This document shows positions 328-29,482 of a stretch of DNA of 32,000 bases, piece after piece. The stretch comes from Candidatus Iainarchaeum sp. (GTDB taxonomy: Archaea > Iainarchaeota > Iainarchaeia > Iainarchaeales > JACQJH01), in the NCBI GenBank assembly GCA_016205145.1, contig JACQJH010000001.1, positions 90,001-122,000 on the forward strand, given 5' to 3'. The notes beneath the pieces were generated by a model. The model worked only from the letters and a program-made list of their open reading frames with translations. It was not told where the DNA came from and ran no database searches. The translations under genes were made by a program, and so were the position numbers. The first letter of the stretch is position 1. Every line of letters begins with the position of its first letter.

Positions 328-666
328 ATGCGAAAGAGGCCTTCCAGGAATGCGCCAAGGCCGGTGAGGCGCCCCAAGGGTGTTGGGGCTGTCGGTTTTG
401 GAAGGCGCCGCATACTGGCAGACGCGGCTCAGGAAAACAGGCCGCTCCTGCAGGGTTATGACCTGCGGGAACCGCCAGTGGAATTGATATCAGCTTTTAG
501 AACGCTTTATGACCTGCATCGCAAGGAATATGACGGTCTTATGGCCGACCCTTCGCTGCACCAGCTCTTTGACTTTTATCTCGGCCAGGGCTTGAATCCG
601 GGGCAGGCTGCAAGAAAGGCGCTCGGATGGAAGCGGAAAACTTCCGGGGCGGCGGCCGTCAAATGA
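328..666 (+). CDS. hypothetical small protein (doubtful, start uncertain)
   Basis: ORF-track ORF. Only the C-terminal ~65 aa look protein-like (ELISAFRTLYDLHRKEYDGLMADPSLHQLFDFYLGQGLNPGQ). The N-terminal third is Arg/Pro-rich. It overlaps the convergent 659-1345 gene by 8 nt. No family recognised. Confidence 0.2.
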   Translation: MRKRPSRNAPRPVRRPKGVGAVGFGRRRILADAAQENRPLLQGYDLREPPVELISAFRTLYDLHRKEYDGLMADPSLHQLFDFYLGQGLNPGQAARKALGWKRKTSGAAAVK

Positions 667-1345
667 ACTGCTCATAATTCTTGCTGTTGAACTTGTACAG
701 GAAGCCCTTTATTTTGGCCCCGTTGCACGAGTATTCCGCCAAAACCTTTTCCTTTTCGCCGGAAAATTTTTCGAATTCGTGTTTCTGGCTCGGGTCGAAC
801 AAAAAGAATTTTCCGCTGATTTCGGTTATGGCGAACGCATGCGTTTCAAGGTTGTCCAGTTCCGCGATTACGACTTCGGCTTTTTCGTCGCCCAGGCCTG
901 CAAGCAGCGAACACAGGAACACTGCGAGGTCCTCGTCGTCGCCGAGCCTTTCAGACATTATTTCCGCGGGGGTCAGCCAGTAGTTGAGGCTCAGCTTTGG
1001 ACTGACAAATCTTATTTCGCTGCACACGAATGCGAACGCCTTTTTCGCGGCTTCGGCGTAATTTTTTTCGAATTCGAAGCCTTCGGGCTTTATCTGTTCG
1101 AGCGCGGACTGGATTGTCAGGTCATCGCCTGAAACCATGGACTTGATTTCGCCGATTGTGCGCTTTTCCCTTTCGTTGATGATGTCCGCGTATTTTTCAA
1201 GCAGCATGCGGAAAAGCCTCAGCTCGAGTTTTTCCATTGGGTCCGCGTTTTCCTGTCCGGTGTTTGGCGGGGCAGTTTCCGCTTTTTTCGCGGTTTCCGC
1301 ATCCGCGGCGCTTTCCGATAGCTTTGTCTGCTTTTCAACGGGCAT
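659..1345 (-). CDS. transglutaminase-like (papain-fold) domain protein, function unknown
   Basis: 228 aa. The C-terminal half has Cys, His and Asp in the order and spacing of the transglutaminase-like core: DLAVFLCSLLAGLG ... ETHAFAI ... FFLFDP. The N-terminus is acidic and low-complexity. Last gene of a same-strand run with coaE and coaD. Family call rests on motif recall only. Confidence 0.5.
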   Translation of the reverse strand: MPVEKQTKLSESAADAETAKKAETAPPNTGQENADPMEKLELRLFRMLLEKYADIINEREKRTIGEIKSMVSGDDLTIQSALEQIKPEGFEFEKNYAEAAKKAFAFVCSEIRFVSPKLSLNYWLTPAEIMSERLGDDEDLAVFLCSLLAGLGDEKAEVVIAELDNLETHAFAITEISGKFFLFDPSQKHEFEKFSGEKEKVLAEYSCNGAKIKGFLYKFNSKNYEQFI

Positions 1346-1430: not shown

Positions 1431-1910
1431 TCATGCCAGTTTTTTCTTGAGCCTTTTTTCAACGCCTTCCGGCACGAAGCCTGAAACGCTGCCCTTGAGT
1501 TTGGCGATTTCCTTGACGGTGCTTGAGCTCAGGTAAAAGTATTCCGCGCTTGTGACAATGAAAACCGTTTCGGTCTGCGGCGACAGCTGCCTGTTCACTG
1601 TCGCCTGCTGGAATTCGAATTCGAAATCCGAGAGTTCGCGCATTCCCCTCAGTATTACAGAGCATTTTTTTGCCCTCACATAGTCTACGAGCAGGCCTTT
1701 GAAGGAATCGACTTCTATGTCCAGGCCTTTCGCCGCGTTCTGAATCATTTCCTTTCTTTCCTGGACCGAAAAAAGCGGTTTCTTGTTCGGGTTGTCGGTC
1801 ACTGCAACGATTATTTTGTCGAAAATCTTGAGGCCGCGTTTTATGACATCAAGGTGCCCGAGTGTTATCGGATCAAAGGTTCCGGGATAGACCGCGGTTT
1901 TTTCAGACAT
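1431..1910 (-). CDS. coaD: phosphopantetheine adenylyltransferase, bacterial type
   Basis: 159 aa, collinear with bacterial PPAT: AVYPGTFDPITLGHLDVIKRG (nucleotidyltransferase T/HxGH motif), ILRGMRELSDFEFEFQ, YLSSSTVKEIA. Its start overlaps the coaE stop by 8 nt (AATGTCTGA). Confidence 0.9.
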   Translation of the reverse strand: MSEKTAVYPGTFDPITLGHLDVIKRGLKIFDKIIVAVTDNPNKKPLFSVQERKEMIQNAAKGLDIEVDSFKGLLVDYVRAKKCSVILRGMRELSDFEFEFQQATVNRQLSPQTETVFIVTSAEYFYLSSSTVKEIAKLKGSVSGFVPEGVEKRLKKKLA

Positions 1911-2475
1911 TTTTTATTCCCGCCTTTTCAAGGAATCTGCGCACCCCGGCTTCCAGGCTTTTTTCCGCGCCCGCATTATTTATGCTGAAATCCGCCTTTT
2001 TAACCTTCTGTGAAAGCGGCATCTGCGCCCTGACGCGCTGGAGGGCCTGCTTTTCCGTCAGGCCTTTTTTTTCCAGCCTCGCGACCTGCTGGGTTTGCCT
2101 GCAGTAGACCGCAACGCTTTTGGAGAAGCAGTTTTCAAGCCTTGCCTCGAAAAGCAGTGGAACGTCGACAAAGATTATGGCGCATTTCCTGCGTTCCAGG
2201 GCGGAAAATTTTTTGAGCAGTTCCCTGAGCACGAGCGGGTGGAGTATGCGTTCAAGCCTTTCCCTCGCCTTTGCGTCGGAAAAGATTTTTTCGGCCAGCT
2301 TTTTCCTGTCATTCGAGCCGAACTCTTTTTTCACGCGCTTTTTGACTTCCGGCTTTTTGTGCAGCTGCGCGACTATTTCGTCGCAGTCAACGGTTTCAAA
2401 GCCCCTGCGTTGCAGGATTTTGAGTACGGTCGACTTGCCGCACGCTATGCCGCCCGTCAGCGCGATTGTCTGCAT
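1903..2475 (-). CDS. coaE: dephospho-CoA kinase, bacterial/eukaryotic type
   Basis: 190 aa. P-loop IALTGGIACGKST, followed by DCDEIV, ILHPLV and FVDVPLLFE in the order seen in CoaE. Confidence 0.85.
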   Translation of the reverse strand: MQTIALTGGIACGKSTVLKILQRRGFETVDCDEIVAQLHKKPEVKKRVKKEFGSNDRKKLAEKIFSDAKARERLERILHPLVLRELLKKFSALERRKCAIIFVDVPLLFEARLENCFSKSVAVYCRQTQQVARLEKKGLTEKQALQRVRAQMPLSQKVKKADFSINNAGAEKSLEAGVRRFLEKAGIKNV

Positions 2476-2510
2476 GCAAGAATTGTTTTTGCGGAAAAAA
2501 GAAAAAGGCG

Positions 2511-3830
2511 CTAGTCGGAGGAAATGACGACTTCCTTTCCGCTGATTTTTTTGGCAATCGCCTGAAGGCTTTCACGCTTTTGCTCAACCGATGATTTGAG
2601 CCTGAACTGCTCTGACTTGAGCTGGGCCAGTCCATTGGTGGTTTTGGCGATGTCCTTTTCGTGGTCTGAGGCCTTTCTTTCGGCGTAAGCCATTTCCCTG
2701 GCTGTTTCGCTGTCGTTCAACTGCTTTTCCGCGGCTGCAAGCCCGACTTTCAGCCTGTTCATTTCCCAGAAAATGTTTTCGAAAAAATCGAATGCTTCAA
2801 GCTGCCTCAGTTCAAGCAGCCTCTTCTCCTTTTCCGCTTCGGCCTTGAACGAAATGCTTCCCTCTTCTATGGATTTCCTTGCCTGTGCGGCTATTTTTTT
2901 GAGGTGCTCGCCTTTCGGGTCGCGCTGCAAGGCATTGAAGGGCCTGGCCACGTACATTTCCGCGAGTTCAAGCATTTCGCCCGCAAGCAAATGCTTTGCC
3001 TTCGCGAGCTTTGTGAATTTGCGCAAAGGCTTTTCAGCGGAAAGAATTTTTGCCGTAGCCTTTTCTTTGAGCGCTTCCATTCCCGCTTCGAGCTCCGCTT
3101 TCTTTTCCCTCACTGATGCCAGGGCGGAGAACTCCTCCGACTTTTGCAGGGCATTCACTTTCGCGAGGTTTTCGGAGTGCGAGTCCTCGATTTCCTTCAG
3201 TTCAATCATAAGCTTCTGCTGCTGCGCAATGCTTTCCCTGTGGCTTTGTTCGGCCGAGAGCAGGTCTTCAACGGCTTTTTTCGCGCTTCCAGCCAGAAAA
3301 ACGTTTTCATTTTTAGCGAACTCCGCGTTCAGGCCTGAAAAAATGTCCTGCAGTTCCGCGACGTGCGAGCCGATTTCCTTGAGCTCGTCCTTCAGGTAAA
3401 CAGTCGAATACGCTATGTTCTTGCCCGCCGAAAAAATCTCCCGGTTCACAAGGCTGAATGATTCGCGCGAGTATGCCGCGGCTTCCTCCATGGAATAGAT
3501 TTTGGGCGGCTCAAGCCTTTTGGCGAGGCTCCCGATTTTTGCCATTGCGAGCCTGCTGCTCGTCGAAACGATTTTTTTGAGCTGTTCGTTCTGTTTTTCC
3601 TCGAGTGAAACAGACTTTGCGCCCTCGACGCCCGATTCAATGGCCCTGAGCAGGTGCTTTATCTCCGCGAAACGCATGGCGACTCTTTTTTGCAGTTCTT
3701 CTTTGCGCGGCGCGGTTTCGCTTTCAAGGAATTCAGCAACGTCCCCTGCTTTCAGCGAAACTTTCTTTTCTGCAGGAGTTTCCCCCGCCCTGCCCCTGAA
3801 CAGGCCTGAAAAAAAGTCCTTCAACGCCAT
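2511..3830 (-). CDS. long coiled-coil protein of unknown function
   Basis: 439 aa, rich in E/K/A/L with heptad-like stretches throughout. The N-terminus MALKDFFSGLFRGR looks amphipathic. First gene of the minus-strand run 3830->659. No family recognised. Confidence 0.6.
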   Translation of the reverse strand: MALKDFFSGLFRGRAGETPAEKKVSLKAGDVAEFLESETAPRKEELQKRVAMRFAEIKHLLRAIESGVEGAKSVSLEEKQNEQLKKIVSTSSRLAMAKIGSLAKRLEPPKIYSMEEAAAYSRESFSLVNREIFSAGKNIAYSTVYLKDELKEIGSHVAELQDIFSGLNAEFAKNENVFLAGSAKKAVEDLLSAEQSHRESIAQQQKLMIELKEIEDSHSENLAKVNALQKSEEFSALASVREKKAELEAGMEALKEKATAKILSAEKPLRKFTKLAKAKHLLAGEMLELAEMYVARPFNALQRDPKGEHLKKIAAQARKSIEEGSISFKAEAEKEKRLLELRQLEAFDFFENIFWEMNRLKVGLAAAEKQLNDSETAREMAYAERKASDHEKDIAKTTNGLAQLKSEQFRLKSSVEQKRESLQAIAKKISGKEVVISSD

Positions 3831-3949: not shown

Positions 3950-5425
3950 ATGCCTGGAAACGCCAATGATAATGCCTTGACCCAGGTGCACAGCCCGCCC
4001 GCGCGCGATTTCAATGCGATGCAGTCGCGCCTTTCGGCAATGTCCGTGGAAGTGAAAAAGTGGAAGGAATGCGTTGTAGTGCACCACCATGACGCCGACG
4101 GGATTTCAGCAGGCTCGATTGCTGTGCAGGCCCTGCTGCGCAAAGGCATTGCAGTGAAGCACAAGGCGATAAAGCAGTTGTACAGGGAAGACTTTGAAAT
4201 GCTCCTCGCATTGGGCGAAAACTTTGTCTTTGTCGACTTCGGTTCCGGCCAGCTCTCGGATTTGAAAAAACATTTTCCGGAAAATTTTCTAGTTTTGGAC
4301 CATCATGCGCCGCAGGAAGACGAAAGCGGCAGGATTGTCGAACACGCATTCCATGCAAACCCCCTGCTTTTCGGCTTTGACGGCGGAAACGAGCTGTCGG
4401 GGGCGGGCATGGCGTACATTTTTGCGAAAACGCTTGATGCAAACAACAATGATTTGGCGGCATTGGCTGTTGTCGGGGCTGTGGGAGACATGCAGGACCT
4501 CGCATCCGGAAAGCTTGTCGGCCTGAATTCGGAAATCGTTTTGAAGGATGCGGTCGAAGCAGGCGTTCTTGGAGTGAAAAACGATTTGCGCCTGTACGGA
4601 AGGATTTCAAGGCCCCTGGTGCAGATGCTGTTGTTTTCAACCTCGCCCGTGTTGCCCGACCTCACTGCGCGCGAGGAGAACTGCAAGTCGTTCCTGCACG
4701 GCGCGGGCATCACCCTGTCGGATGAACACAATGCTTTCAGGAGCTATGAGGATTTGGCCATTGAGGAAAAGAAAAGGCTTTCAACAGCGCTTGTATTGCA
4801 CATGAATTCCTTCAATGTTCCCGAGTGGAAGATCCAGGAATTGTTCGGCGAAGTCTACACGCTTTTGCATGAAGGCAGAAAAAGCCCTCTGCGCGACGCA
4901 AAAGAATTTTCGACATTGCTGAACGCAGTCGGAAGGCACGGCGAACCCGATCTTGGCCTGGCCGTCTGCCTCGGGAACCGTGAAGAAGCGTATGGCAATG
5001 CGCTTGCATTGCTTGCCGAGCACCGCAGGCAACTCGCGCAAGGAATCGAGCTTGTTTCCGGAAACGGTCTGCAGGAATTCGAATCGTTTTATTTTTTTGA
5101 CGCGGGCGAAAAAATCAGGGACTCGATTGTCGGCATCGTTGCAGGCATGCTTTATTCAAGCGGAATCATCGGCACAGACAGGCCGATAATCGCGATGGCA
5201 AGGTATGACGACGGCACAATCAAGGTGAGCGCGCGCGCAACCAAAGACCTGGTGAGAAAAGGCCTGCATCTCGGAAAGGCTTTGCGAAGCGTCTGCGACA
5301 AATTGGGGGGCATTGCCGAAGGAGGGGGGCATGCGATTGCGGCAGGCTGCAAGATCGGGGAAAACGAAAAGGAAAGGTTTCTTGAACTGATGAATGAAGA
5401 GGTAAAGAATTATTTACGCGGCTGA
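3950..5425 (+). CDS. DHH-family phosphoesterase, archaeal RecJ/GAN-like nuclease
   Basis: 491 aa. DHH motifs occur in order: VVVHHHDADGISAG (I), FVDFGSG (II), LVLDHH (III), and GGGHAIAAG (DHHA1-type GGGH). Confidence 0.8.
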   Translation: MPGNANDNALTQVHSPPARDFNAMQSRLSAMSVEVKKWKECVVVHHHDADGISAGSIAVQALLRKGIAVKHKAIKQLYREDFEMLLALGENFVFVDFGSGQLSDLKKHFPENFLVLDHHAPQEDESGRIVEHAFHANPLLFGFDGGNELSGAGMAYIFAKTLDANNNDLAALAVVGAVGDMQDLASGKLVGLNSEIVLKDAVEAGVLGVKNDLRLYGRISRPLVQMLLFSTSPVLPDLTAREENCKSFLHGAGITLSDEHNAFRSYEDLAIEEKKRLSTALVLHMNSFNVPEWKIQELFGEVYTLLHEGRKSPLRDAKEFSTLLNAVGRHGEPDLGLAVCLGNREEAYGNALALLAEHRRQLAQGIELVSGNGLQEFESFYFFDAGEKIRDSIVGIVAGMLYSSGIIGTDRPIIAMARYDDGTIKVSARATKDLVRKGLHLGKALRSVCDKLGGIAEGGGHAIAAGCKIGENEKERFLELMNEEVKNYLRG

Positions 5426-5444: not shown

Positions 5445-6161
5445 ATGATGCCGCTGAGAATTTTGCGTGAAAGGCGTGTCCCGGAGGAACGGCTCAAGGC
5501 GTTCTGGTGCGATTATGACAAGGGAAAAAGGCGTTCCACGACAAGAAGCAGGAGCAATGATCCCCGTGAACTGCCAAAGGCGTGGTTCGACCAGACCGGC
5601 GAAAGAAAACACGAGCCCATGGCGGTTTCGCTTGCCCCGCCATTGCCCGGAAGGGTCAGGAGCTTTTACGGCCAATCGCATCTGACGGCTTATCTTGCCG
5701 CGGCGGAGTTCTGCAACAGCGTCGGGAAAACCGGCGATTTGAAGTTTGCGGTTTTGCAGCCAACCCACATTCTCGGCGTCGACAGGCCGAATTTCAGGCT
5801 TGTTGAAAGGGTTTTTCACGCGCCCACGGTGGACAACGTTTTGTCTAATTCCGGCGGAAGCCTTTCGGGCGTTTCATTGTATGGCAAGGCCTTCGAGGAC
5901 AAAATGAAACGGAAAGGATTCGGCCTTTCCGGCAGGGAAAACTTTGAGAAACTGCGGTCCGACGTCCGGCGCGCTTATTCCGAACTTCGTGAAGCGCTTG
6001 TCGGCACTTTTGTGATGAAGCACAAAGGCGACCCGACAGTATTCGACTTCAAGGAACACAATTTCCTGGTCTTGGATTATGCGCCGGAAACCGGAAAGGT
6101 TTTGCTGGCGGTCGTAGATTACCTCAGCGACACCGCATTTTTGGGCATTAACCCGTTTTGA
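5445..6161 (+). CDS. hypothetical protein (start uncertain)
   Basis: 238-aa ORF. The C-terminal ~150 aa look globular (FVMKHKGDPTVFDFKEHNFLVLDYAPETGKVLLAVVDYL). The N-terminal ~60 aa are basic and low-complexity, so the true start may be the internal Met near 5619. Overlaps the MFS gene 3' end by 14 nt. No family recognised. Confidence 0.4.
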   Translation: MMPLRILRERRVPEERLKAFWCDYDKGKRRSTTRSRSNDPRELPKAWFDQTGERKHEPMAVSLAPPLPGRVRSFYGQSHLTAYLAAAEFCNSVGKTGDLKFAVLQPTHILGVDRPNFRLVERVFHAPTVDNVLSNSGGSLSGVSLYGKAFEDKMKRKGFGLSGRENFEKLRSDVRRAYSELREALVGTFVMKHKGDPTVFDFKEHNFLVLDYAPETGKVLLAVVDYLSDTAFLGINPF

Positions 6162-7257
6162 TTTCAGGGCTGATTTTTTCCGCTATTACAAGTGAAACAA
6201 CCGAGCCTGCCGCCGCGAACAGGAAAACGCTTTGCATTCCGAAAGCCTGCGCTATCGCCCCGCCGAGCAGGGGGCCGATGATGAGAGCGAGGCTTTGTAT
6301 GCTTCCAAGCAGGCCGGTCGCGGTCGCCTTTTCCGCGTTGTTTTCGGATAAGTTTATGAGGCAGCCCACGAATAGCAGGCTGAAAGACGCGGCGATTATC
6401 ATCTGGATCGGGATGATGTGGAAGTAGTCTGATACGAAGCCGAGGGCGAGGAAAGCGATTGCGGTTGCAATCGTTCCCGCCTTGATGAGTTTCCTGCTGT
6501 CCGTTGAATGCTTTTCCGCATAGCCGCCTATCGCGTGCATGAGAATGAACTGCGTCAGGGGGTTGACCGCCCATATTATGCCGAGCCAGAAGTTGCTTGC
6601 GCCGAGGCTTTTGAAAAACAATGGATAGACGACCCAGACCGAGTTCGCGGAAGTGTGCCTAACGAGGAATGTGAGGTAAACGGGCCAGTTTTTTTTCAAC
6701 AGCTGTTTGGGAAATTTCGGCACCGACATTTTTTGCGACCCGATTTCGGGCAGGAACAGGGAAACGATGAACGCGAGGAAAAAGAACAAAGCGCTTGCAG
6801 TGAAAATCTGCCCGCTTCCGGCAAGGAACGCGAAGATTATTCCACCAAAAAACCAGCCGAAACTTCCCCAAGCCGAAATGCCTGAAAGAGATTTTCTGGC
6901 TTTTTCGTGCCTTGAAGCCGCGGCCATGAGGGGAAAGGAGAAAATGCCGACGGCAAGGCCGGCGAAAAAGCGGATGACTGCCATTGAATAAAAGTCTGTA
7001 ATGAACAATTGCGCCAGGAATGCGAGTGAACTGGCAAGCAGGCCGGCCTTGATGAACGTATCGCGCCTGCCGGAGATGTCCGACCACCTGCCGAAAGCGT
7101 AGTATGAAAGGAAACTGCCCAAACCGAAAGCCGTGCCCGCCAGGCCGATTTCAAACAGCGAGAGGCCCAGGTCTTTTCCGAACAACGGGATGAAAAGATA
7201 GCAGAGCGCGTAGGCAACGTATGCCAGGAAGTATGATGCGCGCAGCCGCTTGTCCAT
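6148..7257 (-). CDS. MFS transporter
   Basis: The track ORF runs to 7599, but that extension would cover the divergent promoter and gene. The first sensible Met is at 7257 (MDKRLRASYFLAYVAYALCYLF...). About 12 hydrophobic segments and an MFS motif-A-like GRWSDISGRRDTF. Confidence 0.8.
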   Translation of the reverse strand: MDKRLRASYFLAYVAYALCYLFIPLFGKDLGLSLFEIGLAGTAFGLGSFLSYYAFGRWSDISGRRDTFIKAGLLASSLAFLAQLFITDFYSMAVIRFFAGLAVGIFSFPLMAAASRHEKARKSLSGISAWGSFGWFFGGIIFAFLAGSGQIFTASALFFFLAFIVSLFLPEIGSQKMSVPKFPKQLLKKNWPVYLTFLVRHTSANSVWVVYPLFFKSLGASNFWLGIIWAVNPLTQFILMHAIGGYAEKHSTDSRKLIKAGTIATAIAFLALGFVSDYFHIIPIQMIIAASFSLLFVGCLINLSENNAEKATATGLLGSIQSLALIIGPLLGGAIAQAFGMQSVFLFAAAGSVVSLVIAEKISPEIKTG

Positions 7258-7280
7258 GAATTGCTTGCAGGGCGTTAACA

Positions 7281-7290
7281 ATTTAAAACA
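7281..7290. promoter_or_regulatory. single A/T box shared by two divergent, apparently leaderless genes
   Basis: atttaaaaca is the only A/T-rich element in the 54-nt spacer 7258-7311. Its centre lies ~26.5 nt from ATG 7312 (+) and ~28 nt from ATG 7257 (-). Confidence 0.45.
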
Positions 7291-7311
7291 CTTGCCGCAA
7301 TCTTTGTTTGC

Positions 7312-8370
7312 ATGTCCGTTGAAGACGCATTGAAGCAGAACAAGCCGAAAATCGACCGGGAACTTGAAAAAATTCTGCCGCGCAAAATCGGCAAAGCCTG
7401 GGTCGAATGGTTTCTGGGCAGAAGCGCCTACGACTGTGATTATGAAACACTGACAAAATCCGTTTCGGAACCGATTTGGGATTTTTTGGACCGCGGCGGG
7501 AAAAGATGGCGCCCTACCCTGATGCTCTGGAGCCTTGAAGCCGTGGGCGGAAAACCGGAACAATTCTACGAGTTCACGGCGATGCCCGAATTCATTCACA
7601 CTGGCACCATTGTCGCCGATGATTTGGAGGACAATTCAACCGAAAGAAGGGGAAAGCCCTGCATGCATCTCTTATACGGTCTTGACATAGCATTGAACGA
7701 TTCCAACATAATGTACTTTTTGCCTGCCGTGCTCTTGTACCGCAACAAAAAGCTTTCTCCGGGCCAGAAGGAAAAAATTTACGATTTGTTTGCCGAGGAA
7801 ATGATGCGCGTTTCCATCGGCCAGGCCATGGACATATACTGGCACAGGCACCAGTCAGTGAAAGTTTCAGAGGCGAACTACCTGCAGATGTGCGCCTACA
7901 AGACGGGTGTTTTGGCAAGGTTTTCAGCCAGGCTCGGCGCGATTCTCGGCAACGCTTCCGAAAAGCAGGTTGAAGCTTTGGGCAAGTTCGGCGAAAGCCT
8001 TGGAGTTGCCTTCCAGATACAGGATGACATTCTCAACCTGAAGCCGGAGTCCGGAGAGTGGGGCAAGGAAGTGGGCGACGACATCCAGGAAGGCAAGAAG
8101 ACTTTGCTTGTGATCCACGCCCTTGCAAACGCGCCCAGGGAAAAGGCAAAGCGCCTGGCGGAAATTCTTGAAAAGCACAGTTCCGGCAAAAAGGATATTG
8201 CAGAGGCCATTGCAATAATGGATGAAGCCGGCTCTTTCGCCTACGCGGCAAAAATGGCTCTCGGAATAGTCGAAAAAAGCTGGGCGGAAGCCGAAAAGGT
8301 TTTGCCTGAAAGCATGGCGAAGGGAAAACTGCGCGAGTTCGCGTTCTTTGCCGTGAAAAGAAAGGTATAA
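7312..8370 (+). CDS. trans-polyprenyl diphosphate synthase (probably geranylgeranyl diphosphate synthase)
   Basis: 352 aa. First and second Asp-rich motifs are IVADDLEDNSTERRGKP and FQIQDDILNL, and GKKTLL is also present. Product chain length cannot be read by eye. Confidence 0.85.
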   Translation: MSVEDALKQNKPKIDRELEKILPRKIGKAWVEWFLGRSAYDCDYETLTKSVSEPIWDFLDRGGKRWRPTLMLWSLEAVGGKPEQFYEFTAMPEFIHTGTIVADDLEDNSTERRGKPCMHLLYGLDIALNDSNIMYFLPAVLLYRNKKLSPGQKEKIYDLFAEEMMRVSIGQAMDIYWHRHQSVKVSEANYLQMCAYKTGVLARFSARLGAILGNASEKQVEALGKFGESLGVAFQIQDDILNLKPESGEWGKEVGDDIQEGKKTLLVIHALANAPREKAKRLAEILEKHSSGKKDIAEAIAIMDEAGSFAYAAKMALGIVEKSWAEAEKVLPESMAKGKLREFAFFAVKRKV

Positions 8371-13929: not shown

Positions 13930-16590
13930 TCATTTTGCCTTTTTTTCCTTCAAAGCCGCCTGTGCAGCTGCCAGCCTTGCAATCGGAACCCTGTAAGGCG
14001 AGCAACTCACGTAATTCAGCCCGATGGTGTGGCAGAATTCCACGCTGGATGGCTCGCCGCCGTGTTCGCCGCAAATCCCGATTTTCAGGTTTTCGCGTTT
14101 CGAGCGGCCTTTCTGCACCGCGGTCCTGATTAGCTGGCCCACGCCTTCCTGGTCGAGCACCTGGAATGGATCATGCTTTATGATTTTCTTTTCCATGTAA
14201 GCCGGAATGAATTTTGCGGCATCGTCCCTTGAATAGCCCCAGGTCGTCTGCGTCAGATCGTTTGTGCCGAAAGAGAAAAATTCCGCGTACTCCGCGATGT
14301 CATCCGCTGTAAGGCATGCCCTCGGCAGTTCCATCATCACGCCAATCAAGAAATCAAGGTCGGCTTTCTTTTCCGACAGCACCTGCTTGGCAGTCGCGTC
14401 CACCAATGCCGCCATGTTTTTCATTTCATTGACATGGTTCAGGACCGGAATCATTATTTCGGGCCTGACGTCGACGCCTTTTTCCTTTGCCTCGACCGCT
14501 GCCTCGATTATTGCGCGAACTTGCATTTCGTTGATTTCAGGGAAGACGATGCCGAGGCGGCAGCCCCTGAATCCGAGCATCGGATTTATTTCGTGCAATG
14601 ACGCGATTTTCGCCTTGATTTTTTCCACGCTTACGCCCGTGCTCTGCGCGATTTCCGCGATTTCCTTTTCGCCTTCGGGCAGGAATTCGTGCAGTGGCGG
14701 GTCAAGCAGCCTTATCGTTACCGGCAGACCATCCATTGCCTTGAAAATGCCCTTGAAGTCCTCGCGCTGGAATGGAAGCAGTTTGTCCAAGGCCTTGCGC
14801 CTCTCCGCGGTTGTTTCCGCCAGAATCATTTCACGCATTGCCTTGATGCGGCTGCCCTCGAAAAACATGTGCTCGGTCCTGCACAAGCCTATGCCTTCGG
14901 CGCCGAACTTTCTCGCAACATCGGAGTCATGCGGCGTATCCGCATTCGTCCTCACTTTAAGCTTTCTGACCGCGTCAGCCCATTCCATCAATGTCCCAAA
15001 ATCGCCTGAAAGCTTTGGCTCGACAAGCGGCAGTTTTCCGAGATAGACCTTGCCAGTGCTTCCGTCCAGGGAAACCCAGTCGTTTTCCTTGACCGCAATT
15101 TCCCCTTCCGCGGTCTTCACCGAAAACCTGTTGTCCTTGTATGAAACGTGGATGTCATTGCTTCCGGCAACACAGCATTTGCCCATGCCGCGCGCTACGA
15201 CTGCAGCATGACTGGTGCTTCCGCCGCGCGCAGTGAGAATGCCCTGCGCAACGTTCATTCCTTCAATGTCTTCGGGCGTTGTCTCGACGCGCACGAGAAT
15301 AAGTTTTTTGTTTGCGTCCGCGTCATGCAATGCCTTCGCCTTTTCCGCTGTGAAAACAACCTGGCCGACTGCCGCGCCCGGCGAGGCGGCTATGCCGGAG
15401 GCAATGGCTTTTGCCTTCTGTGCCTCTTTTTCGTCGAACTGCTTGTGCAATAGCTGGTCGAGCTGTTCCGGCTTGACGCGCATGATCGCGGTTTCCCTGT
15501 CAATGAGCTTTTCCTTTTCCATGTCGACCGCAATTTTCACCGCCGCCTTTGCGGTGCGCTTTCCGCTTCTTGTCTGCAAAAGGAACAGCTTTTCATGCTC
15601 GAAGGTAAACTCGAAGTCCTGCAAATCGCGGTAATGCTTTTCAAGAATGTCGTAAACCTTCAGCAGTTCAGCGTAAACCTTTGGATGAGATTTTTTCATT
15701 TCGTCGACGGGCTGGGGCGTCCTTATGCCCGCAACGACGTCCTCGCCCTGCGCGTTGATCAAAAATTCGCCGTAATGCTCCTTCTCGCCGGTTGCGGGAT
15801 TGCGCGTGAAGGAAACGCCTGTTCCGCAGTCTTCTCCCATGTTTCCGAAAACCATTACCTGCACGTTCACGCCCGTTCCGGCGTCCTCTTTCAGCTTGTT
15901 GATGCGCCTGTATGACACAGCCCTCGGAACGTTCCATGAACTAAAGACGGCGTTGATGCCCATTTTCAGCTGCTCGAACGCTTCATTGGGAAAGCTTTTG
16001 CCCGCGTGCTTCTGCACGATTGCTTTGTACTCTTCAACCAAAACCTTGAGGTCTTCGACGGAAAGTTCCGTGTCAAGCTTCACGCCTTTCCCTGCCTTGA
16101 GCGCATGAATGGCTTCCTCGAAATGCTCATGCTGGACTCCCATGACAACGTCGCCGAACATGTGTATGAAGCGCCTGTAAGAGTCATACGCGCCCCTTTC
16201 ATTTTTGGTCGAGTGCGCCAATCCCTTGACGGTTTCGTCGTTCAAACCCAAGTTGAGGACAGTGTCCATCATTCCCGGCATTGAAACGTAAGAGCCGGAG
16301 CGCACGGAAAACAGCAATGGATTTTCCGGGTCGCCGAACTTTTTTCCGATTTTGGCTTCGGTTTTGGCAAGGCATTCTTTTACCTGTGATTCAAGGCCTT
16401 CCGGCCATTTTTTGCCCGAATCATAGAATTCATTGCAGGCCTCGGTTGAAACGGTGAATCCCGGTGGCACGGGCAGTCCGATTGAAGTCATTTCCGCGAG
16501 CTGTGCGCCCTTGTTGCCCAGCCTGAAAATCCATTCTTCCGAATTCGCATTTTTGACCTCATCAAACAAATACACGTACTTCTTTGCCAT
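13930..16590 (-). CDS. ppdK: pyruvate, phosphate dikinase
   Basis: 886 aa from MAKKYVYLFDE at ATG 16590; the track ORF extension to 16743 is rejected. Motifs: RLGNKGAQLAEM, the phospho-His loop GGSTSHAAVVARGMGK, CRTEHMFF and IGICGEHGGEPSS. aaggggtg lies ~8 nt upstream of the start. Confidence 0.95.
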   Translation of the reverse strand: MAKKYVYLFDEVKNANSEEWIFRLGNKGAQLAEMTSIGLPVPPGFTVSTEACNEFYDSGKKWPEGLESQVKECLAKTEAKIGKKFGDPENPLLFSVRSGSYVSMPGMMDTVLNLGLNDETVKGLAHSTKNERGAYDSYRRFIHMFGDVVMGVQHEHFEEAIHALKAGKGVKLDTELSVEDLKVLVEEYKAIVQKHAGKSFPNEAFEQLKMGINAVFSSWNVPRAVSYRRINKLKEDAGTGVNVQVMVFGNMGEDCGTGVSFTRNPATGEKEHYGEFLINAQGEDVVAGIRTPQPVDEMKKSHPKVYAELLKVYDILEKHYRDLQDFEFTFEHEKLFLLQTRSGKRTAKAAVKIAVDMEKEKLIDRETAIMRVKPEQLDQLLHKQFDEKEAQKAKAIASGIAASPGAAVGQVVFTAEKAKALHDADANKKLILVRVETTPEDIEGMNVAQGILTARGGSTSHAAVVARGMGKCCVAGSNDIHVSYKDNRFSVKTAEGEIAVKENDWVSLDGSTGKVYLGKLPLVEPKLSGDFGTLMEWADAVRKLKVRTNADTPHDSDVARKFGAEGIGLCRTEHMFFEGSRIKAMREMILAETTAERRKALDKLLPFQREDFKGIFKAMDGLPVTIRLLDPPLHEFLPEGEKEIAEIAQSTGVSVEKIKAKIASLHEINPMLGFRGCRLGIVFPEINEMQVRAIIEAAVEAKEKGVDVRPEIMIPVLNHVNEMKNMAALVDATAKQVLSEKKADLDFLIGVMMELPRACLTADDIAEYAEFFSFGTNDLTQTTWGYSRDDAAKFIPAYMEKKIIKHDPFQVLDQEGVGQLIRTAVQKGRSKRENLKIGICGEHGGEPSSVEFCHTIGLNYVSCSPYRVPIARLAAAQAALKEKKAK

Positions 16591-16813
16591 CCACAAAACA
16601 CCCCTTAATTGTCGAAGCCGCTTTCGTCCGGCGGTTTCGTCCGCCGGGTCCGAAGCTAAGGCCGTCCACTGTTGTGAACGGCCGAGCCGTTCGGCAAAAG
16701 CCAAACAGACAGCCTCAAAAGCCAATGAACCGATTTCCTGCAAAAAAGGGTTTTAAAGGGTTTTGGAAACTTGACCGCGGCAGGCTTTTAACCGCCGAAG
16801 CCGTATACTGGTA

Positions 16814-18424: not shown

Positions 18425-18483
18425 CGTTTGCCTTTTGTGCACTTGGGCGTGCCAAAGGATTTAATTTGTGTGAATGATATTTG

Positions 18484-20031
18484 ATGGTGAAACCGATGTT
18501 TTCCCGTGGCCAGTCCGCAATCGAGTATCTGCTGTTGCTTGGCGCCGCGATTTTGATTGCCGCGGTTGTCGTTGCCTTGATTTCTTTTGTGGGTTCGGGC
18601 GGAAAGACTTCGGCGCAGGAATCAGGCGTGCAGCAGAGGCTGGCAATGCAGAACCTTGCGGCTGTTGGGGGCATGGGTTTCTCCTATTCCTGTGTTGCTA
18701 ATGGTGTCTGCGAAGCCGATGAAACAATGCAGTCCTGTTCCGCGGACTGTGCTGGCAAGCCTTTCAGGCAGTACCTGCATTTTTATTCGGCGGAGGCGGG
18801 GGGTTCTGAGGTTTCTTCCGTGCCGGCGCCCATGCTTAACGTGCCCGCTTCGGGTTTGCGGCATTATATCTATGTCGAGCTTTCCGAAATGCACGGGCAT
18901 CTCAGTGTTTACCGTTCCGCCACCGTAAACAATGCGAATAACCGGTCTGTCGCGCTTTCACCCGGCGAAATCGACGCGCTGTTCAATCTTTACGGCGTGG
19001 AAACGGGCAATCCTGTTAGAGGGAAGAGCATGAACATGAGCATACTGCAGCGTGCCGACGTGCAGAAAATCCATCATGAACTTGCACAAGGCAATCCTGC
19101 GTATAATGCAAAGTACGGCAATGGCGGCCTGGAAACAGGGGTCGGGCTTGACGGTTCCGGAATGCCCGTTCTTGATGCTTCCGACAAGCTTGTGCCGGAC
19201 AGACCGGTACAGGATTACCAAGACGGCAAAACAATGCTGTGGCCGTTTTACTACAATGCCAGCGGCAAGCATAAGATGAGGGTTCTCTGGAACCTTAACA
19301 GCCCGGCGGTCAGGGAATATCTTGTGCGGTACGGCGTGAAAACCGCCTCTTTCAGTCCAAGCGGCGACCTGTTTATTGACAACACTATTTTTCCGGGCCA
19401 GGTGCTGGAGGATTATTCATATGTTTTTTCAGGTGCAAGGAACGGCCTTGCGGCGCATCTTTCCGGCATTACATTGGAAATTCGGGCAGAAATCGTGAAA
19501 CGGCTTGACGGAAAGGGGCTGATAATGAACGCTCTCAGGTTCACAAACTCCGACAATGAGATATTTTCTGATGCTGTTGTTGATTCCGGCCAGTTTGACG
19601 GTTTGATGGCCGAAAACCAGTTTTGGCGTGATGGCATTGCCATTGGCGGTTCTCCAAGGGGTGCGACGTCCGTTGCATGGTACCGGGATTTGACGCAGAA
19701 AATGAAATCAAAAGGCAAAAAGATTCTTTTTACGGCCTCCGGCTCCGGTTTTACGCGGGCTGATCCCTCAAAGATTTTGCCAGTTTGGTTATGGTTGCAC
19801 TTGGTTGCTGATGACAGCACGTATTTTCTATTGCCGGGCAATGGAGCCGATGGCGATTCGTTTGATAACCAGTTCCTTCCGTTTGTTTTTCCGCTCGGCT
19901 ATCCGCTTGACCAAGCACCGGTGCAGGACGGCAGTGTGTGGAGCAGGCGCTATGAGCGCGGCACGATTGTTTTTGACATTTCAAGCGGAAGGCTTGACGC
20001 CATAAGGTTCGAGGAAAACCCGCCCGGGTGA
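18484..20031 (+). CDS. class III (prepilin-type) signal peptide fused to a Cys mini-module and a GH-like domain; paralog of 26452-28209
   Basis: N-terminus M(VKPM)FSRG/QSAIEYLLLLGAAILIAAVVVALI; alternative ATG at 18496. 18541-18582 is 42/42 identical to 16868-16909. CVANGVCEADETMQSCSADC is followed by ~430 aa collinear with the 26452 gene (SGQFDGLMAEN, WLWLHLVADD, GYPLDQAPVQDGSVWSRRYERGTIVFD). The enzymatic family is not confidently named. Confidence 0.8.
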   Translation: MVKPMFSRGQSAIEYLLLLGAAILIAAVVVALISFVGSGGKTSAQESGVQQRLAMQNLAAVGGMGFSYSCVANGVCEADETMQSCSADCAGKPFRQYLHFYSAEAGGSEVSSVPAPMLNVPASGLRHYIYVELSEMHGHLSVYRSATVNNANNRSVALSPGEIDALFNLYGVETGNPVRGKSMNMSILQRADVQKIHHELAQGNPAYNAKYGNGGLETGVGLDGSGMPVLDASDKLVPDRPVQDYQDGKTMLWPFYYNASGKHKMRVLWNLNSPAVREYLVRYGVKTASFSPSGDLFIDNTIFPGQVLEDYSYVFSGARNGLAAHLSGITLEIRAEIVKRLDGKGLIMNALRFTNSDNEIFSDAVVDSGQFDGLMAENQFWRDGIAIGGSPRGATSVAWYRDLTQKMKSKGKKILFTASGSGFTRADPSKILPVWLWLHLVADDSTYFLLPGNGADGDSFDNQFLPFVFPLGYPLDQAPVQDGSVWSRRYERGTIVFDISSGRLDAIRFEENPPG

Positions 20032-21665: not shown

Positions 21666-23285
21666 TTATTTTTTGCCAATGCGCTCCAGCTTTTCATCCG
21701 CCTTCTTTTCCGCTTCCAGCCTTTCCAGGCCCGCGCCTTTCTCGTAGACGAATTTCATGAGTTCGAAGACAAGCGGGGTCGCCTTTTTCGCCTGATGGAA
21801 CATTTCGATTGAAACCCTTCGGTAGTCGGCGTGTCCCTGCGGCGTCGACCTCAGCTCAACCAAGTGGTACATTTCACGCGCGTTGAGAGTGAAATACCAT
21901 CTTATTTTGTACGCGAGCGGGACAACGTATTGTGCCTGCAACGGCATTTCCTTCGCGATTTTATCGTAAGTTTCCTTCGCTCCTGCCATTGCCTTTTCAA
22001 ATTCCTTCAAAACGCCCGCCTTTTCCAGTTCGGGATAAGTGTCATAGCCGAAGTTTGCCGTCAAAAGCTGGCGTTCCTGTGTAAGCTGGCGATGTCGGTG
22101 CAAGTCACGGAAGCCGCCGTAATTTGAGAGCAAGTCGAAAGTGTAGTATGCGTTTTCGAAGCTTCGCAAAGGCTTGTGCCTGCGGTTCTGCCTGTGCGCA
22201 AGAGATGCATGGATGACTTTGCGCTTTTCCTCTTCGCCCATTGCGGCAACGATTTTTTTGAGCTGGTGCAGGGGCTTGTCGCTGTGCGCGTAAAGCAGCG
22301 CGCAAACGATTTTGTTGTCGGCTTCCATGTCAAAGTCGACCAGTTCCACTTCCTTTGCCTGCTCCGCATGTTTGCCTGCAAGCAGTTCTTTTGCGGTTGC
22401 GTCAAGGTTTGCGTTCGCCTGCCTGAAAAAATCCTGTGTCGGGCCGCCGTATTTTCCGGCCGCGCGCTTGACGAAAGAAGGAATGTAAGTCAAAAGCTCT
22501 TCGTGCAATGAAGAAGCGATGCCGTTGATTTCCTTCAATGGCGAGGCGTGCATTTTGAGTATGAGGTATTCGAACGCCCTGCCATTGCCGTACAGGCCGA
22601 GGTTTGTCAGCGTTGAAGCAGGCAGGAGGCCGCGCAGGAGGTCGCAGGTTTTAGCCTTGATTGTCGACTTGTACGCGCGGTCGGTTGTCTCGGAGTCCTG
22701 CGGAAACCATTCCTCGGCCTGTGTTCTCACTTTCGGCACGAGTTCGGCGTACGTGCCGAACAGCAAATCGCACGTTTCCACGTAATCCTTTTCGAATGCC
22801 GACTGCATTATGCCAGGCTCGAGCAGGTACTGGTATCGGCCGCCCTCTTTCTCGTCAAAGTAAACGTAGCGCGTGCTTTTTTCCAGGGGGGAGAGGCCAA
22901 TGCGTGAATCCTCGAGGACTTTGCTTGCGATGATTGAAACCTTTTCGCATGCGACGTGCGCTCCGCCTAATTCCGCGACGGAATCGTCGCCGTAGCCGAC
23001 CAGAACGCGGTCGTAAAACTCTTCGGCTTTCTTGGTTGCGATTGCCTGCTGTTCTCCGTTTCCAAGTGAATAGTTGACGATTTCCCGGAAGCCGGATTCC
23101 TTGTCGGCAATGAATTCGTCGAGCAAAAGCCTGCGCAATGGTTTCGGCGAGCGCGAATAGCGCGAGAACAGTGCGCCTGAAACGACTTCGGGCAGGTTTT
23201 TGAGGACAAAGACGTTTTTGTCCATGTTCGAAAAAAACGGTTCCAGGATTTTCCGCTCTTCCGAGGAAAAAGAATTTTCCGCCAT
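21666..23285 (-). CDS. long-form ThyX-like (Thy1-fold) protein, putative FAD-dependent thymidylate synthase
   Basis: 539 aa. The C-terminal half has FRDLHRHRQLTQERQ and TLNAREMYHLVELRSTPQGHADYR, which align with the ThyX RHR motif and NxRxLxxxxxLR...H/Q region. N-terminal GALFSRYSRS suggests a second, degenerate copy. Confidence 0.6.
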   Translation of the reverse strand: MAENSFSSEERKILEPFFSNMDKNVFVLKNLPEVVSGALFSRYSRSPKPLRRLLLDEFIADKESGFREIVNYSLGNGEQQAIATKKAEEFYDRVLVGYGDDSVAELGGAHVACEKVSIIASKVLEDSRIGLSPLEKSTRYVYFDEKEGGRYQYLLEPGIMQSAFEKDYVETCDLLFGTYAELVPKVRTQAEEWFPQDSETTDRAYKSTIKAKTCDLLRGLLPASTLTNLGLYGNGRAFEYLILKMHASPLKEINGIASSLHEELLTYIPSFVKRAAGKYGGPTQDFFRQANANLDATAKELLAGKHAEQAKEVELVDFDMEADNKIVCALLYAHSDKPLHQLKKIVAAMGEEEKRKVIHASLAHRQNRRHKPLRSFENAYYTFDLLSNYGGFRDLHRHRQLTQERQLLTANFGYDTYPELEKAGVLKEFEKAMAGAKETYDKIAKEMPLQAQYVVPLAYKIRWYFTLNAREMYHLVELRSTPQGHADYRRVSIEMFHQAKKATPLVFELMKFVYEKGAGLERLEAEKKADEKLERIGKK

Positions 23286-23350
23286 TGCCCCACCAGACTA
23301 AATTAAAGCAATGGCAATGGTTAAATATTTCACTTTTGATTATTGTTTTC

Positions 23351-26377: not shown

Positions 26378-26417
26378 CGGCCTATAACCGTTTGGCATTC
26401 TTTCATGGGCATGCTTT

Positions 26418-26492
26418 CTGTTTTAAAAAACCTTTCAGGGCAATCGTTTTTATGCATCCAAGCGACGCCATCAAGGGAACCGCGTCAAAAAG
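26418..26492 (+). repeat. direct repeat copy A: promoter plus first 13 codons (partner 28245-28320)
   Basis: ctgttttaaaaaacctttcagggcaatcgtttttatgcatccaagcgacgccatcaagggaaccgcgtcaaaaag is ~84% identical to copy B, with an identical 21-nt core cgtttttatgcatccaagcga. The TATA-like ttttaaaaaa (26421-26430) lies ~26 nt upstream of the conserved ATG at 26452. Confidence 0.85.
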
Positions 26493-28244: not shown

Positions 28245-28320
28245 CTGTTTTAAAAATCCTTTTCCGGCCATTCGTTTTTATGCATCCAAGCGAAGCAATC
28301 CGGGCTTCCGCGTCAAAAAG
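28245..28320 (+). repeat. direct repeat copy B: promoter plus first 13 codons of coaBC
   Basis: ctgttttaaaaatccttttccggccattcgtttttatgcatccaagcgaagcaatccgggcttccgcgtcaaaaag. The TATA-like ttttaaaaa (28248-28256) lies ~28 nt upstream of ATG 28280. Confidence 0.85.
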
Positions 28321-29482
28321 CCTTTACGGAAAGCTCATAGTGTTGGGAGTTTCATCAAGCATTGCCGCAGTGAAGACTGTTGAAATTGCAAGGGAACTGA
28401 TCAGGCACGGCGCGGAAGTGCAGGCAGTGATGTCAAAGGGCGCGGAAGACATCATTGCGCCGGGGGCGCTGGAGTTTGCCACGGGGAAGCCTGTCATAAC
28501 GCATCTCAGCGGAATGGTCGAGCACGTCGACCTGTTCGGAGCGCATGGAAAAGCCGATTTGCTTTTGTTGTGCCCTGCAAGCGCAAACGTGATTGGAAAA
28601 ATCGCGAATGGCATAGCTGATGATGCCCTGACAACCATTGCAATGACTGTTGTTGGGGTGAAAAAGCCAGTCCTGGTCTGCCCGGCAATGCATTTGGAAA
28701 TGTGGCAGAACACTGCCGTCAGGGTGAACGTCGAAAAGCTTGGCGTGCTGGGCGCGGAATTCGTGCCGGCGAAAAGCCTTGAAGGCGCGGAAAAAATCGC
28801 GGACAAGGAAACGATTGTGCTGTTTGTGGAACGGGCGCTTTCCGGCAAAAGGCTTGCAGGCAAAAAGGTTGTCGTTTGCGCCGGCGCAACGCGCGAGGAA
28901 ATCGATCCCGTGCGCGTGCTGACAAACAAGGCATCGGGAAAAACCGGCGAGGAAATCGCAAAAGAGGCTTTCAGGCAGGGCGCACAAACCACACTTATAC
29001 ATAATCGGGATTGTTTTGTTTCCGGCATCAAATGCGTGCAGGCGCAAACCATCGAGGAATTCCGCAAGGCAATCCTTTCGGAGCTTGAAGGCGCGGATGT
29101 TTTCGTCTCGGCGGCGGCAATCGGCGATTTTGTAGTGGAAAAGGCGAAGGACAAGCTTGCTTCGGAAAAAGGCGTTGAATTGAAGTTCAGGCCCGCCCCT
29201 AAAATCCTCGCGGAAGTCGTGAAGAAATTTCCCGATTTGTTCGTTGTCGCGTTCAAGGCGGAAACGAACAAGGGGACGGAAGAGCTTGAAAAAATCGCAA
29301 AGGAAAAGCTGAAGGAACTGAAGCAGGGCTTTGTGGTTGCGAACGACGTGGCACATGGTGGAATGGGAACGGATGAAAATTCGGTTTTGATCGTCGGCAA
29401 AAACTTTTCGGAAAGCGTTTCAGGAAAGAAAAGCCTGATTGCCAGAAAAATCGTGGAAAAAATTGAATGCGGTCTGCCATAA
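28280..29482 (+). CDS. coaBC: bifunctional phosphopantothenoylcysteine decarboxylase / phosphopantothenate-cysteine ligase
   Basis: 400 aa from MHPSEAIRASASKSLYGKLIVLGVSSSIAAVK. CoaC region: PASANVIGKIANGIADDALT. CoaB region: VCAGATREEIDPVRVLTNKASGKTG and AAAIGDF. The start is chosen at the conserved ATG of repeat B rather than the track start 28190. Confidence 0.9.
   Translation: MHPSEAIRASASKSLYGKLIVLGVSSSIAAVKTVEIARELIRHGAEVQAVMSKGAEDIIAPGALEFATGKPVITHLSGMVEHVDLFGAHGKADLLLLCPASANVIGKIANGIADDALTTIAMTVVGVKKPVLVCPAMHLEMWQNTAVRVNVEKLGVLGAEFVPAKSLEGAEKIADKETIVLFVERALSGKRLAGKKVVVCAGATREEIDPVRVLTNKASGKTGEEIAKEAFRQGAQTTLIHNRDCFVSGIKCVQAQTIEEFRKAILSELEGADVFVSAAAIGDFVVEKAKDKLASEKGVELKFRPAPKILAEVVKKFPDLFVVAFKAETNKGTEELEKIAKEKLKELKQGFVVANDVAHGGMGTDENSVLIVGKNFSESVSGKKSLIARKIVEKIECGLP

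Follow-up and report, generated by a model that had tools for sequence, protein, structure and literature searches.

A bacterial-type coaE-coaD pair in an Iainarchaeota genome, conserved across DPANN archaea

Introduction

Archaea normally complete the synthesis of coenzyme A (CoA) with a phosphopantetheine adenylyltransferase (PPAT) different from the bacterial one and with a GTP-dependent dephospho-CoA kinase (DPCK) of the arCOG04076 family (Shimosaka et al., 2019, PMC6650551). How, then, did an archaeal genome come to carry coaD and coaE, the genes for these two steps, in their bacterial form and overlapping each other? The question is raised by a stretch of 32,000 nucleotides from Candidatus Iainarchaeum sp. 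(assembly GCA_016205145.1, contig JACQJH010000001.1, positions 90,001 to 122,000 of the forward strand), which is referred to here as the window and whose features are collected in Table 1. An earlier note, made from the letters of the window alone, had set the two genes against normal archaeal usage, in agreement with the published picture, and had proposed them as a candidate inter-domain transfer. The genes are indeed of bacterial family, so this part of the proposal stands, whereas a fresh transfer does not fit, as the pair is old, shared across DPANN archaea and matched to its hosts in base composition. The reading that we favour, with a probability of about 0.7, is an old acquisition from bacteria that was inherited within DPANN and led to a mosaic CoA route, probably replacing the archaeal PPAT and the GTP-dependent DPCK.

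Identity of the two genes

CoaD matches the coaD equivalog model TIGR01510 with 191.1 bits (cutoff 103.3, E 1e-56) over positions 1-154 of its 155, and Pfam CTP_transf_like with 92 bits, and it aligns over its full length with the solved bacterial PPATs of Bacillus subtilis (1o6b, 160 bits), Thermotoga maritima (1vlh) and Escherichia coli (1b6t), which confirms the whole-length match to bacterial PPAT that had been noted earlier. The motif PGTFDPITLGH19 (with T16-L-G-H19), K43, R88/R91 and S128-S-S130 are present in the sequence and were aligned with 1o6b and 1vlh; they correspond to the T/HxGH nucleotidyltransferase motif, K42, R88/R91 and S128-130 (E. coli numbering), which we take to be the conserved residues of PPATs. 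The protein is thus collinear with bacterial PPAT (CoaD/KdtB; TIGR01510, COG0669), of the same size (159 aa), and ~50-58% identical to the PPATs of Desulfobacterales, Atribacterota and Aminicenantes. The archaeal PPAT model NF001985 (PRK00777, COG1019 type) reaches 19.4 bits against a cutoff of 104 and covers the N-terminal 38 residues only, short of membership. As CoaD fails this model and passes TIGR01510, the label "bacterial-type" is correct, and CoaD is a predicted PPAT of the bacterial kind. Unlike bacterial PPAT genes, coaD of the window lies in an archaeal genome and follows a coaE that overlaps it; a bacterial context is, for example, recG-coaD in locus L031.

CoaE was likewise read in the earlier note as the P-loop type of bacteria and eukaryotes, and this holds: it matches TIGR00152 with 138.3 bits (cutoff 65.55) over the full model and Pfam CoaE (PF01121) with 130 bits (cutoff 27), and its best solved relatives, those of Thermus thermophilus (1uf9) and Aquifex aeolicus (2if2), align from end to end. 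The P-loop/Walker A G8-GIACGKST16, D30-C-D32, H79-P80, VPLLFE and R147/R149 are found in the sequence and aligned to both structures, so that all motifs of the nucleotide kinase are represented. We take the GxxxxGKS/T stretch to be the Walker A motif, DxD to be the motif of the acceptor site and R147/R149 to be the lid arginines. A Pfam scan of CoaE returned only CoaE, AAA_18 and AAA_28, without a match to arCOG04076/DUF359 (the GTP-dependent DPCK, TK1697 family), and none of the other open reading frames (ORFs) scanned within the window gave a match of this type. The TK1697 family has a thiamine-pyrophosphokinase-like fold and does not belong to the P-loop proteins. From the bacterial P-loop DPCKs, CoaE of the window differs in its archaeal host, in its physical coupling to coaD and in its fast evolution, no relative beyond its own lineage exceeding 50% identity.

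Could CoaE instead be some other kind of P-loop kinase, as TK1334 and TK2192 are, two archaeal proteins of arCOG01045 that are DPCK-like yet inactive as DPCK? Archaeal DPCK-like P-loop proteins can lack DPCK activity (PMC6650551), and in some Aminicenantes and Acidobacteria coaD is preceded by the gene of a small P-loop kinase that weakly resembles CoaE. We nevertheless regard this as very improbable, in view of a TIGR00152 match that spans the full model at twice the equivalog cutoff, an identity to bacterial CoaE of ~40% (TK1334 and TK2192 share 14-16% with the E. coli DPCK), the retention of the P-loop, DxD, HP and PLLFE motifs, and the coupling of the gene to coaD. By its family, CoaE is therefore a predicted DPCK of the P-loop, bacterial/eukaryotic kind.

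The archaeal host of the contig

The host of the pair is identified by its surroundings. At 120 bp past the 439-aa ORF that precedes coaE, and on the opposite strand, lies a gene for a RecJ/GAN-type nuclease that matches the archaeal model NF053576 (RecJ_archaeal) with 498 bits (cutoff 360). An identical CoaD is recorded at NCBI under "MAG: Candidatus Diapherotrites archaeon", from a metagenome-assembled genome (MAG) in which it lies on a 613-kb contig, and the NCBI taxonomy places Candidatus Diapherotrites MAGs in Archaea, Nanobdellati, Candidatus Iainarchaeota. The earlier assumption of an archaeal replicon is upheld by both the nuclease and the identical CoaD. Scans of the window for tRNA genes and Rfam families as taxonomic markers found nothing.

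The window is MAG-derived and its coaD and coaE are of bacterial type, as would be expected had bacterial DNA been misjoined or misbinned with archaeal sequence. However, the order RecJ, 439-aa ORF, coaE, coaD, DUF553, including identical junctions to the archaeal RecJ gene, is reproduced in three independent Logan assemblies (SRR12113383, SRR12113384 and SRR12113385), base composition is even across the window, and in other genomes coaD adjoins genes for ribosomal protein S17e, RpoK and Bud32. On the strength of the archaeal RecJ, the identical CoaD in a Diapherotrites MAG, the three assemblies and the even composition, a chimera is so unlikely that we set it aside.

The coaE-coaD pair across DPANN and bacteria

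CoaD loci were searched for by peptide patterns in one genome per GTDB species, a set outside which the window's own genome lies. Eight of the nine best loci, at 55-61% identity, came from archaeal MAGs labelled Iainarchaeum, Woesearchaeota, "archaeon" and, in one case, "Methanosarcinales"; bacterial loci followed at 49-58% (Desulfobacterales, Atribacterota, Aminicenantes and others). In all eight archaeal loci coaE lies upstream of coaD, the two overlapping by 4-11 nt or being 14-18 nt apart, and in L012 one ORF stands between them. Four further contigs were fetched via metagenome matches. Two of them, L084 (64% identity) and the TARA marine contig L088, carry the pair together with the flanks of the window's lineage, namely polyprenyl synthase, DUF553, phosphoglucomutase and glyceraldehyde-3-phosphate dehydrogenase (GAPDH); in L086 (Nanoarchaeota) coaE is upstream of coaD with one opposite-strand gene of the major facilitator superfamily (MFS) between them; and L085 (Micrarchaeota) ends at the start of coaD and was left out of the arrangement count.

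Immediately upstream of coaD, a bona fide coaE was thus found in 12 of 12 assessable archaeal loci (the window and 11 others, from Iainarchaeota, Woesearchaeota and Nanoarchaeota) and in none of the 68 bacterial loci with the closest bacterial CoaDs (Fisher p = 1.7e-14, for loci that are phylogenetically non-independent). All eight other archaeal CoaE partners tested pass TIGR00152, with 121-160 bits. We speak of the DPANN coaE-coaD module where a contig with archaeal markers has a bona fide coaE immediately before coaD and on the same strand, and the window conforms to this definition. Among such markers on the contigs of the relatives are Bud32, adjoining coaD in L009, A/V-ATPase subunit I in L008, and ribosomal protein S17e and Rpb6/RpoK, adjoining coaD in L086. 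The earlier note had implied that the pair is special to this replicon; its presence in Iainarchaeota, Woesearchaeota and Nanoarchaeota contigs with archaeal markers shows instead a well-populated archaeal group, which is what the note itself had named as refuting its proposal.

Within the Woesearchaeota/Nanoarchaeota group the order Lhr helicase, coaE, coaD recurs. The Lhr-type helicase immediately precedes the pair in L007 (128-2995), L009 (2814-5399), L012 (403-3003) and L086 (5516-8113), and matches PRK13767 with ~1170-1190 bits in the three that were scanned; this flank is unlike that of the Iainarchaeota lineage. One of these loci, L009 (CAZKBD010000035.1), bears the label "uncultured Methanosarcinales archaeon", while its CoaD, its Lhr/coaE/coaD synteny and its GC content of 0.36 group with the Woesearchaeota/Nanoarchaeota loci, and its taxonomic label or binning may be wrong.

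A relaxed search also returned a coaE-like gene upstream of coaD in eight loci of Aminicenantes, Acidobacteria and Chrysiogenales. These were rejected as a bacterial precedent for coaE-coaD because they encode generic P-loop kinases, with 26 bits or nothing against TIGR00152. The kinases (~180 aa; L059, L063, L076 and L083, 5442-5993; L078, 5424-5960; L069, 1546-2094; L074, 473-1009; L075, 1500-2072) match Pfam AAA_17 and AAA_18 and resemble CoaE weakly, in the N-terminal 90 aa only. The two compared with NCBIfam, from L083 and L074, have their best matches in NF041025, the kinase-like domain of anti-phage dCTP deaminase, and in PRK08356. Such a protein may be either a DPCK that has diverged or a nucleotide kinase of unrelated kind.

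Origin of the pair

The most likely origin of the pair is an acquisition from bacteria at an early point in DPANN evolution, after which the pair would have been inherited within DPANN as a conserved module, probably standing in for the COG1019-type PPAT and the arCOG04076 GTP-dependent DPCK. Base composition and phylogeny bear on this reading. In the window, GC content and GC at third codon positions (GC3) are 0.49 and 0.61 for coaD and 0.53 and 0.66 for coaE, equal to those of the neighbouring genes, and the GC content of the pair follows that of its host locus from 0.29 to 0.51 (0.29 to 0.49 across nine other archaeal loci). Composition matched to each host in this way points to long residence in each lineage.

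Distance trees (neighbour-joining, NJ) with bootstrap were built for CoaD (196 and 95 sequences) and CoaE (129 sequences). With 196 CoaDs, all named archaeal sequences fall on one side of a split, with just two bacterial sequences alongside, at a bootstrap below 5%. With the 95 CoaDs of known origin, the window falls into a 13-member clade of Diapherotrites/Iainarchaeota/Micrarchaeota (bootstrap 46%), and a Woesearchaeota/Nanoarchaeota core forms a second group. These two groups correspond to a division of DPANN into two clans that Dombrowski et al. (10.1101/2020.03.05.976373) described. Hidden Markov models (HMMs) built from archaeal sequences only are preferred over bacterial ones by both proteins, CoaD scoring 254 versus 236 bits (+18) and CoaE being 7 bits higher. 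A search for signature residues gave one archaeal-specific column in each protein, too few to use. The coaD and coaE genes of the window hence belong to a well-populated archaeal clade, and the bacterial ancestry of the CoaD and CoaE families is clear.

A recent, lineage-specific transfer into the window's replicon, as implied by the earlier note, would account for genes that are clearly of bacterial family and for bacterial CoaDs with up to 55-58% identity. It is contradicted by the data and hardly credible: the closest CoaD relatives are archaeal, with up to 64-66% identity outside the species; the pair shares its flanks with marine and other related MAGs (L084, L088); its GC and GC3 equal those of its neighbours; and there are no mobile-element genes beside it in the window.

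Several observations nonetheless weigh against an old acquisition inherited within DPANN. Joint monophyly of the DPANN CoaDs has an NJ bootstrap of 0.4% in the strict sense and of 15% if up to five bacteria are allowed inside, and in the CoaE tree nine of nine archaeal sequences fall together, yet at a bootstrap of 2%, which leaves that tree poorly resolved. CoaE of the window is on average 34% identical to other archaeal CoaEs and 39% to its best bacterial matches, the latter comparison resting on a biased sample. Two bacterial CoaDs, L031 and L087, branch near the archaeal sequences; we considered these as mislabelled archaea and rejected this, for one contig carries recG, pta, ackA and plsX and the other sigma-70 and FlhF/FlhG-like genes, and they are genuinely bacterial. 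The search for CoaD loci, moreover, was non-exhaustive. Given the negligible NJ support for archaeal monophyly, a single origin is not claimed from the trees.

The same distribution could have arisen without a single ancestral acquisition, had coaD and coaE been transferred several times independently, be it from a bacterial donor or from one DPANN lineage to another. In favour of this, the archaeal CoaDs fall into two groups, the Diapherotrites/Micrarchaeota clade and the Woesearchaeota/Nanoarchaeota core, apart from the stray L012; bacterial sequences stand between them, joint monophyly of the archaeal sequences has very low support, the CoaEs of one group are only 28-33% identical to those of the other, and bacterial genes are frequent in DPANN (PMC8204110). 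In contrast, both groups have the derived arrangement of coaE before coaD, often overlapping, which is absent from the 68 bacterial loci, the division of CoaD into two groups parallels that of DPANN into two clans (10.1101/2020.03.05.976373), and a protein of 159 aa resolves phylogeny poorly either way. We consider repeated transfer unlikely, though a serious alternative, and as to whether DPANN acquired the genes once or several times, gene order favours a common origin.

The acquisition that we favour could be cast in a stronger form, which we offer tentatively and as less likely than not. A single ancient bacterial-to-archaeal transfer may have made the coupled coaE-coaD in the DPANN ancestor, and throughout the superphylum the pair may have supplanted the PPAT and the GTP-dependent DPCK of archaea; the "missing DPCK" of DPANN would then reflect non-orthologous displacement and not CoA auxotrophy, and the module would be a shared derived character.

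A mosaic CoA pathway

The window also holds coaBC, which the earlier note had counted as bacterial-type. Its product matches TIGR00521 (Dfp) with 336.7 bits (cutoff 219.7) and contains both PF02441 (flavoprotein, the phosphopantothenoylcysteine decarboxylase, PPCDC) and PF04127 (DFP, the phosphopantothenoylcysteine synthetase, PPCS). Like the scores of CoaD and CoaE, this one lies far outside what chance would give. The NCBI product, 100% identical, has 400 aa, which sets the start of the gene at 28280, in agreement with the earlier coordinates. The bacterial label, however, has to be withdrawn: the nearest named relatives, at 44-48% identity, are archaeal (Thermococcus eurythermalis, T. guaymasensis, T. 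celer, T. pacificus, an ANME-1 archaeon and Halococcus), and archaea as a rule use a CoaBC that is bifunctional (PMC6650551). With an archaeal-type CoaBC and bacterial-type CoaD and CoaE, the pathway is a mosaic.

As judged from the established roles of these families, the archaeal-type CoaBC would convert 4'-phosphopantothenate and cysteine to 4'-phosphopantetheine, CoaD would transfer AMP from ATP onto 4'-phosphopantetheine to give dephospho-CoA, and CoaE would phosphorylate the 3'-hydroxyl of dephospho-CoA to give CoA in this Iainarchaeota organism. No source of 4'-phosphopantothenate, be it pantothenate kinase (PanK) or pantoate kinase plus phosphopantothenate synthetase (PoK + PPS), was found among the ORFs scanned within the window. 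The three reactions are identical to those of the canonical archaeal late pathway, which uses CoaBC, the COG1019-type PPAT TK2128 and the GTP-dependent DPCK TK1697 of arCOG04076 (PMC6650551). CoaBC of the window is of the archaeal lineage, whereas its PPAT and DPCK steps are served by non-orthologous bacterial-type genes, the PPAT being distantly related to the archaeal one and the DPCK unrelated.

Genes around the pair

The 8-nt overlap of coaE and coaD probably leads to translational coupling, and overlaps of 4-19 nt also occur in L004, L005, L006, L009, L010, L084 and L088. The neighbours on either side had been assigned to one operon with the pair in the earlier note. The coupling of coaE and coaD is well supported, while co-transcription of all four genes is less certain, given that a T-rich tract follows the stop codon of the 439-aa ORF and that a TTAAAAA box precedes the ATG of the DUF553 gene. 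The tract, TTTTTCTTTTTT, is a possible archaeal terminator or A/T-rich promoter element. The box, at 1376-1370, is TATA-like and lies 25-31 nt upstream of the ATG of the 228-aa ORF, which therefore probably has its own promoter. The transglutaminase-like character given to this ORF earlier is in line with its weak Pfam matches (PF24656, 28 bits; PF04473, 27 bits); a PDB sequence search with it gave nothing useful, and homologues lie near the pair in L004 and L088. The 439-aa ORF has no match in Pfam, NCBIfam or PDB, and homologues at 32-33% identity occupy the same position upstream of coaE in L004 (5-694) and L006 (2-1138).

Table 1. Features of the window that are discussed in the text (aa, amino acids).
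Feature	Position	Strand	Basis
228-aa transglutaminase-like (DUF553/CEP76 peptidase-like) ORF downstream of coaD	659..1345	(-)	Pfam, synteny
coaD, predicted bacterial-type PPAT, 159 aa	1431..1910	(-)	TIGR01510, Pfam CTP_transf_like, structures, motifs
8-nt overlap ATGTCTGA, coaE stop / coaD start	1903..1910 (read 1910-1903)	(-)	sequence
coaE, predicted P-loop (bacterial/eukaryotic-type) dephospho-CoA kinase, 190 aa	1903..2475	(-)	TIGR00152, Pfam CoaE, structures, motifs
T-rich tract TTTTTCTTTTTT between 439-aa ORF stop and coaE start	2495..2506	(-)	sequence
439-aa ORF directly upstream of coaE	2511..3830	(-)	conserved neighbour in Iainarchaeota-like lineage
Archaeal RecJ/GAN-type nuclease, archaeal marker of the contig	3950..5425	(+)	NF053576, Pfam DHH, DHH_CID, DHHA1
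coaBC, bifunctional PPCS/PPCDC with archaeal affinities, which would supply 4'-phosphopantetheine to CoaD	28280..29482	(+)	TIGR00521, NCBI product

Further features of the window and of related loci were seen in passing. Elements of the IS200/IS605 type lie a few kb from the pair in L084 (6291-7867, Y1 transposase and OrfB/TnpB, Cas12f-like) and L086 (2579-3076, Y1 only), and the window has none. An MFS transporter ORF at 6148-7599 (-) has 483 aa from its GTG start and is called as 369 aa on an identical Logan contig, so that translation probably begins internally, near 7257. Two genes near the pair are typical of bacteria or eukaryotes, namely a pyruvate,phosphate dikinase gene at 13930-16743 (-; TIGR01828, 1386 bits) and, just outside the window, a GAPDH gene of the Gp_dh_N/Gp_dh_C type (L002, 7090-8094; L088, 14989-15993). 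A ThyX ORF of 539 aa at 21666-23285 (-) has its Thy1 domain mainly in residues 315-504, in two matched stretches, and scores 63 bits against TIGR02170, below the cutoff of 88; it either has an extra N-terminal region of ~300 aa or is a degenerate tandem ThyX. Large ORFs of the secreted or surface type are clustered at 18481-20031 (+), 23285-26377 (+) and 26278-28209 (+); the cluster includes one ORF with a weak match to an archaeal class III (pilin-like) signal peptide, a 1030-aa Laminin_G_3 protein and weak GHL15 matches, and a giant Laminin_G_3 protein similar to that of the window is also found near coaE-coaD in L084.

Implications for CoA metabolism in DPANN archaea

Nanoarchaeota and some further DPANN are reported to lack the arCOG04076 kinase, a lack explained by host dependence or parasitism (Shimosaka et al., 2019, PMC6650551), and CoA pathways are rarely complete in Woesearchaeota (Huang et al., 2021). 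Bacterial systems known in DPANN include DnaK-DnaJ-GrpE, GroEL, the MEP pathway, Ack/Pta and queuosine synthesis (Castelle et al., 2021, PMC8204110). Like these, coaE-coaD is a module of bacterial type that is established in DPANN genomes and has been conserved by several of their lineages, but it is not on that list, and CoA genes are not mentioned in the text or two supplements of that study. No explicit description of bacterial-type CoaD and CoaE in DPANN was found in a full-text literature search. Public annotation already names the proteins correctly, hence the advance is a modest one.

The enzymes themselves are ordinary and well understood, and the value of finding them in an unexpected host domain lies in the pattern across DPANN. 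Rather than a novel or recent transfer, coaE-coaD is a further bacterial module resident in DPANN archaea, and it adds one entry to those already known there. Although a need for host-supplied cofactors is assumed for many DPANN, they have kept a two-gene module of bacterial type for the last steps of CoA synthesis. This suggests that at least some DPANN may have a replacement enzyme, in contrast to the explanation of the missing kinase by parasitism. If so, metabolic reconstructions of the CoA autonomy of DPANN, or of their salvage of 4'-phosphopantetheine, would change, and if the module were to go back to a single ancestor, it would bear on the disputed monophyly of DPANN.

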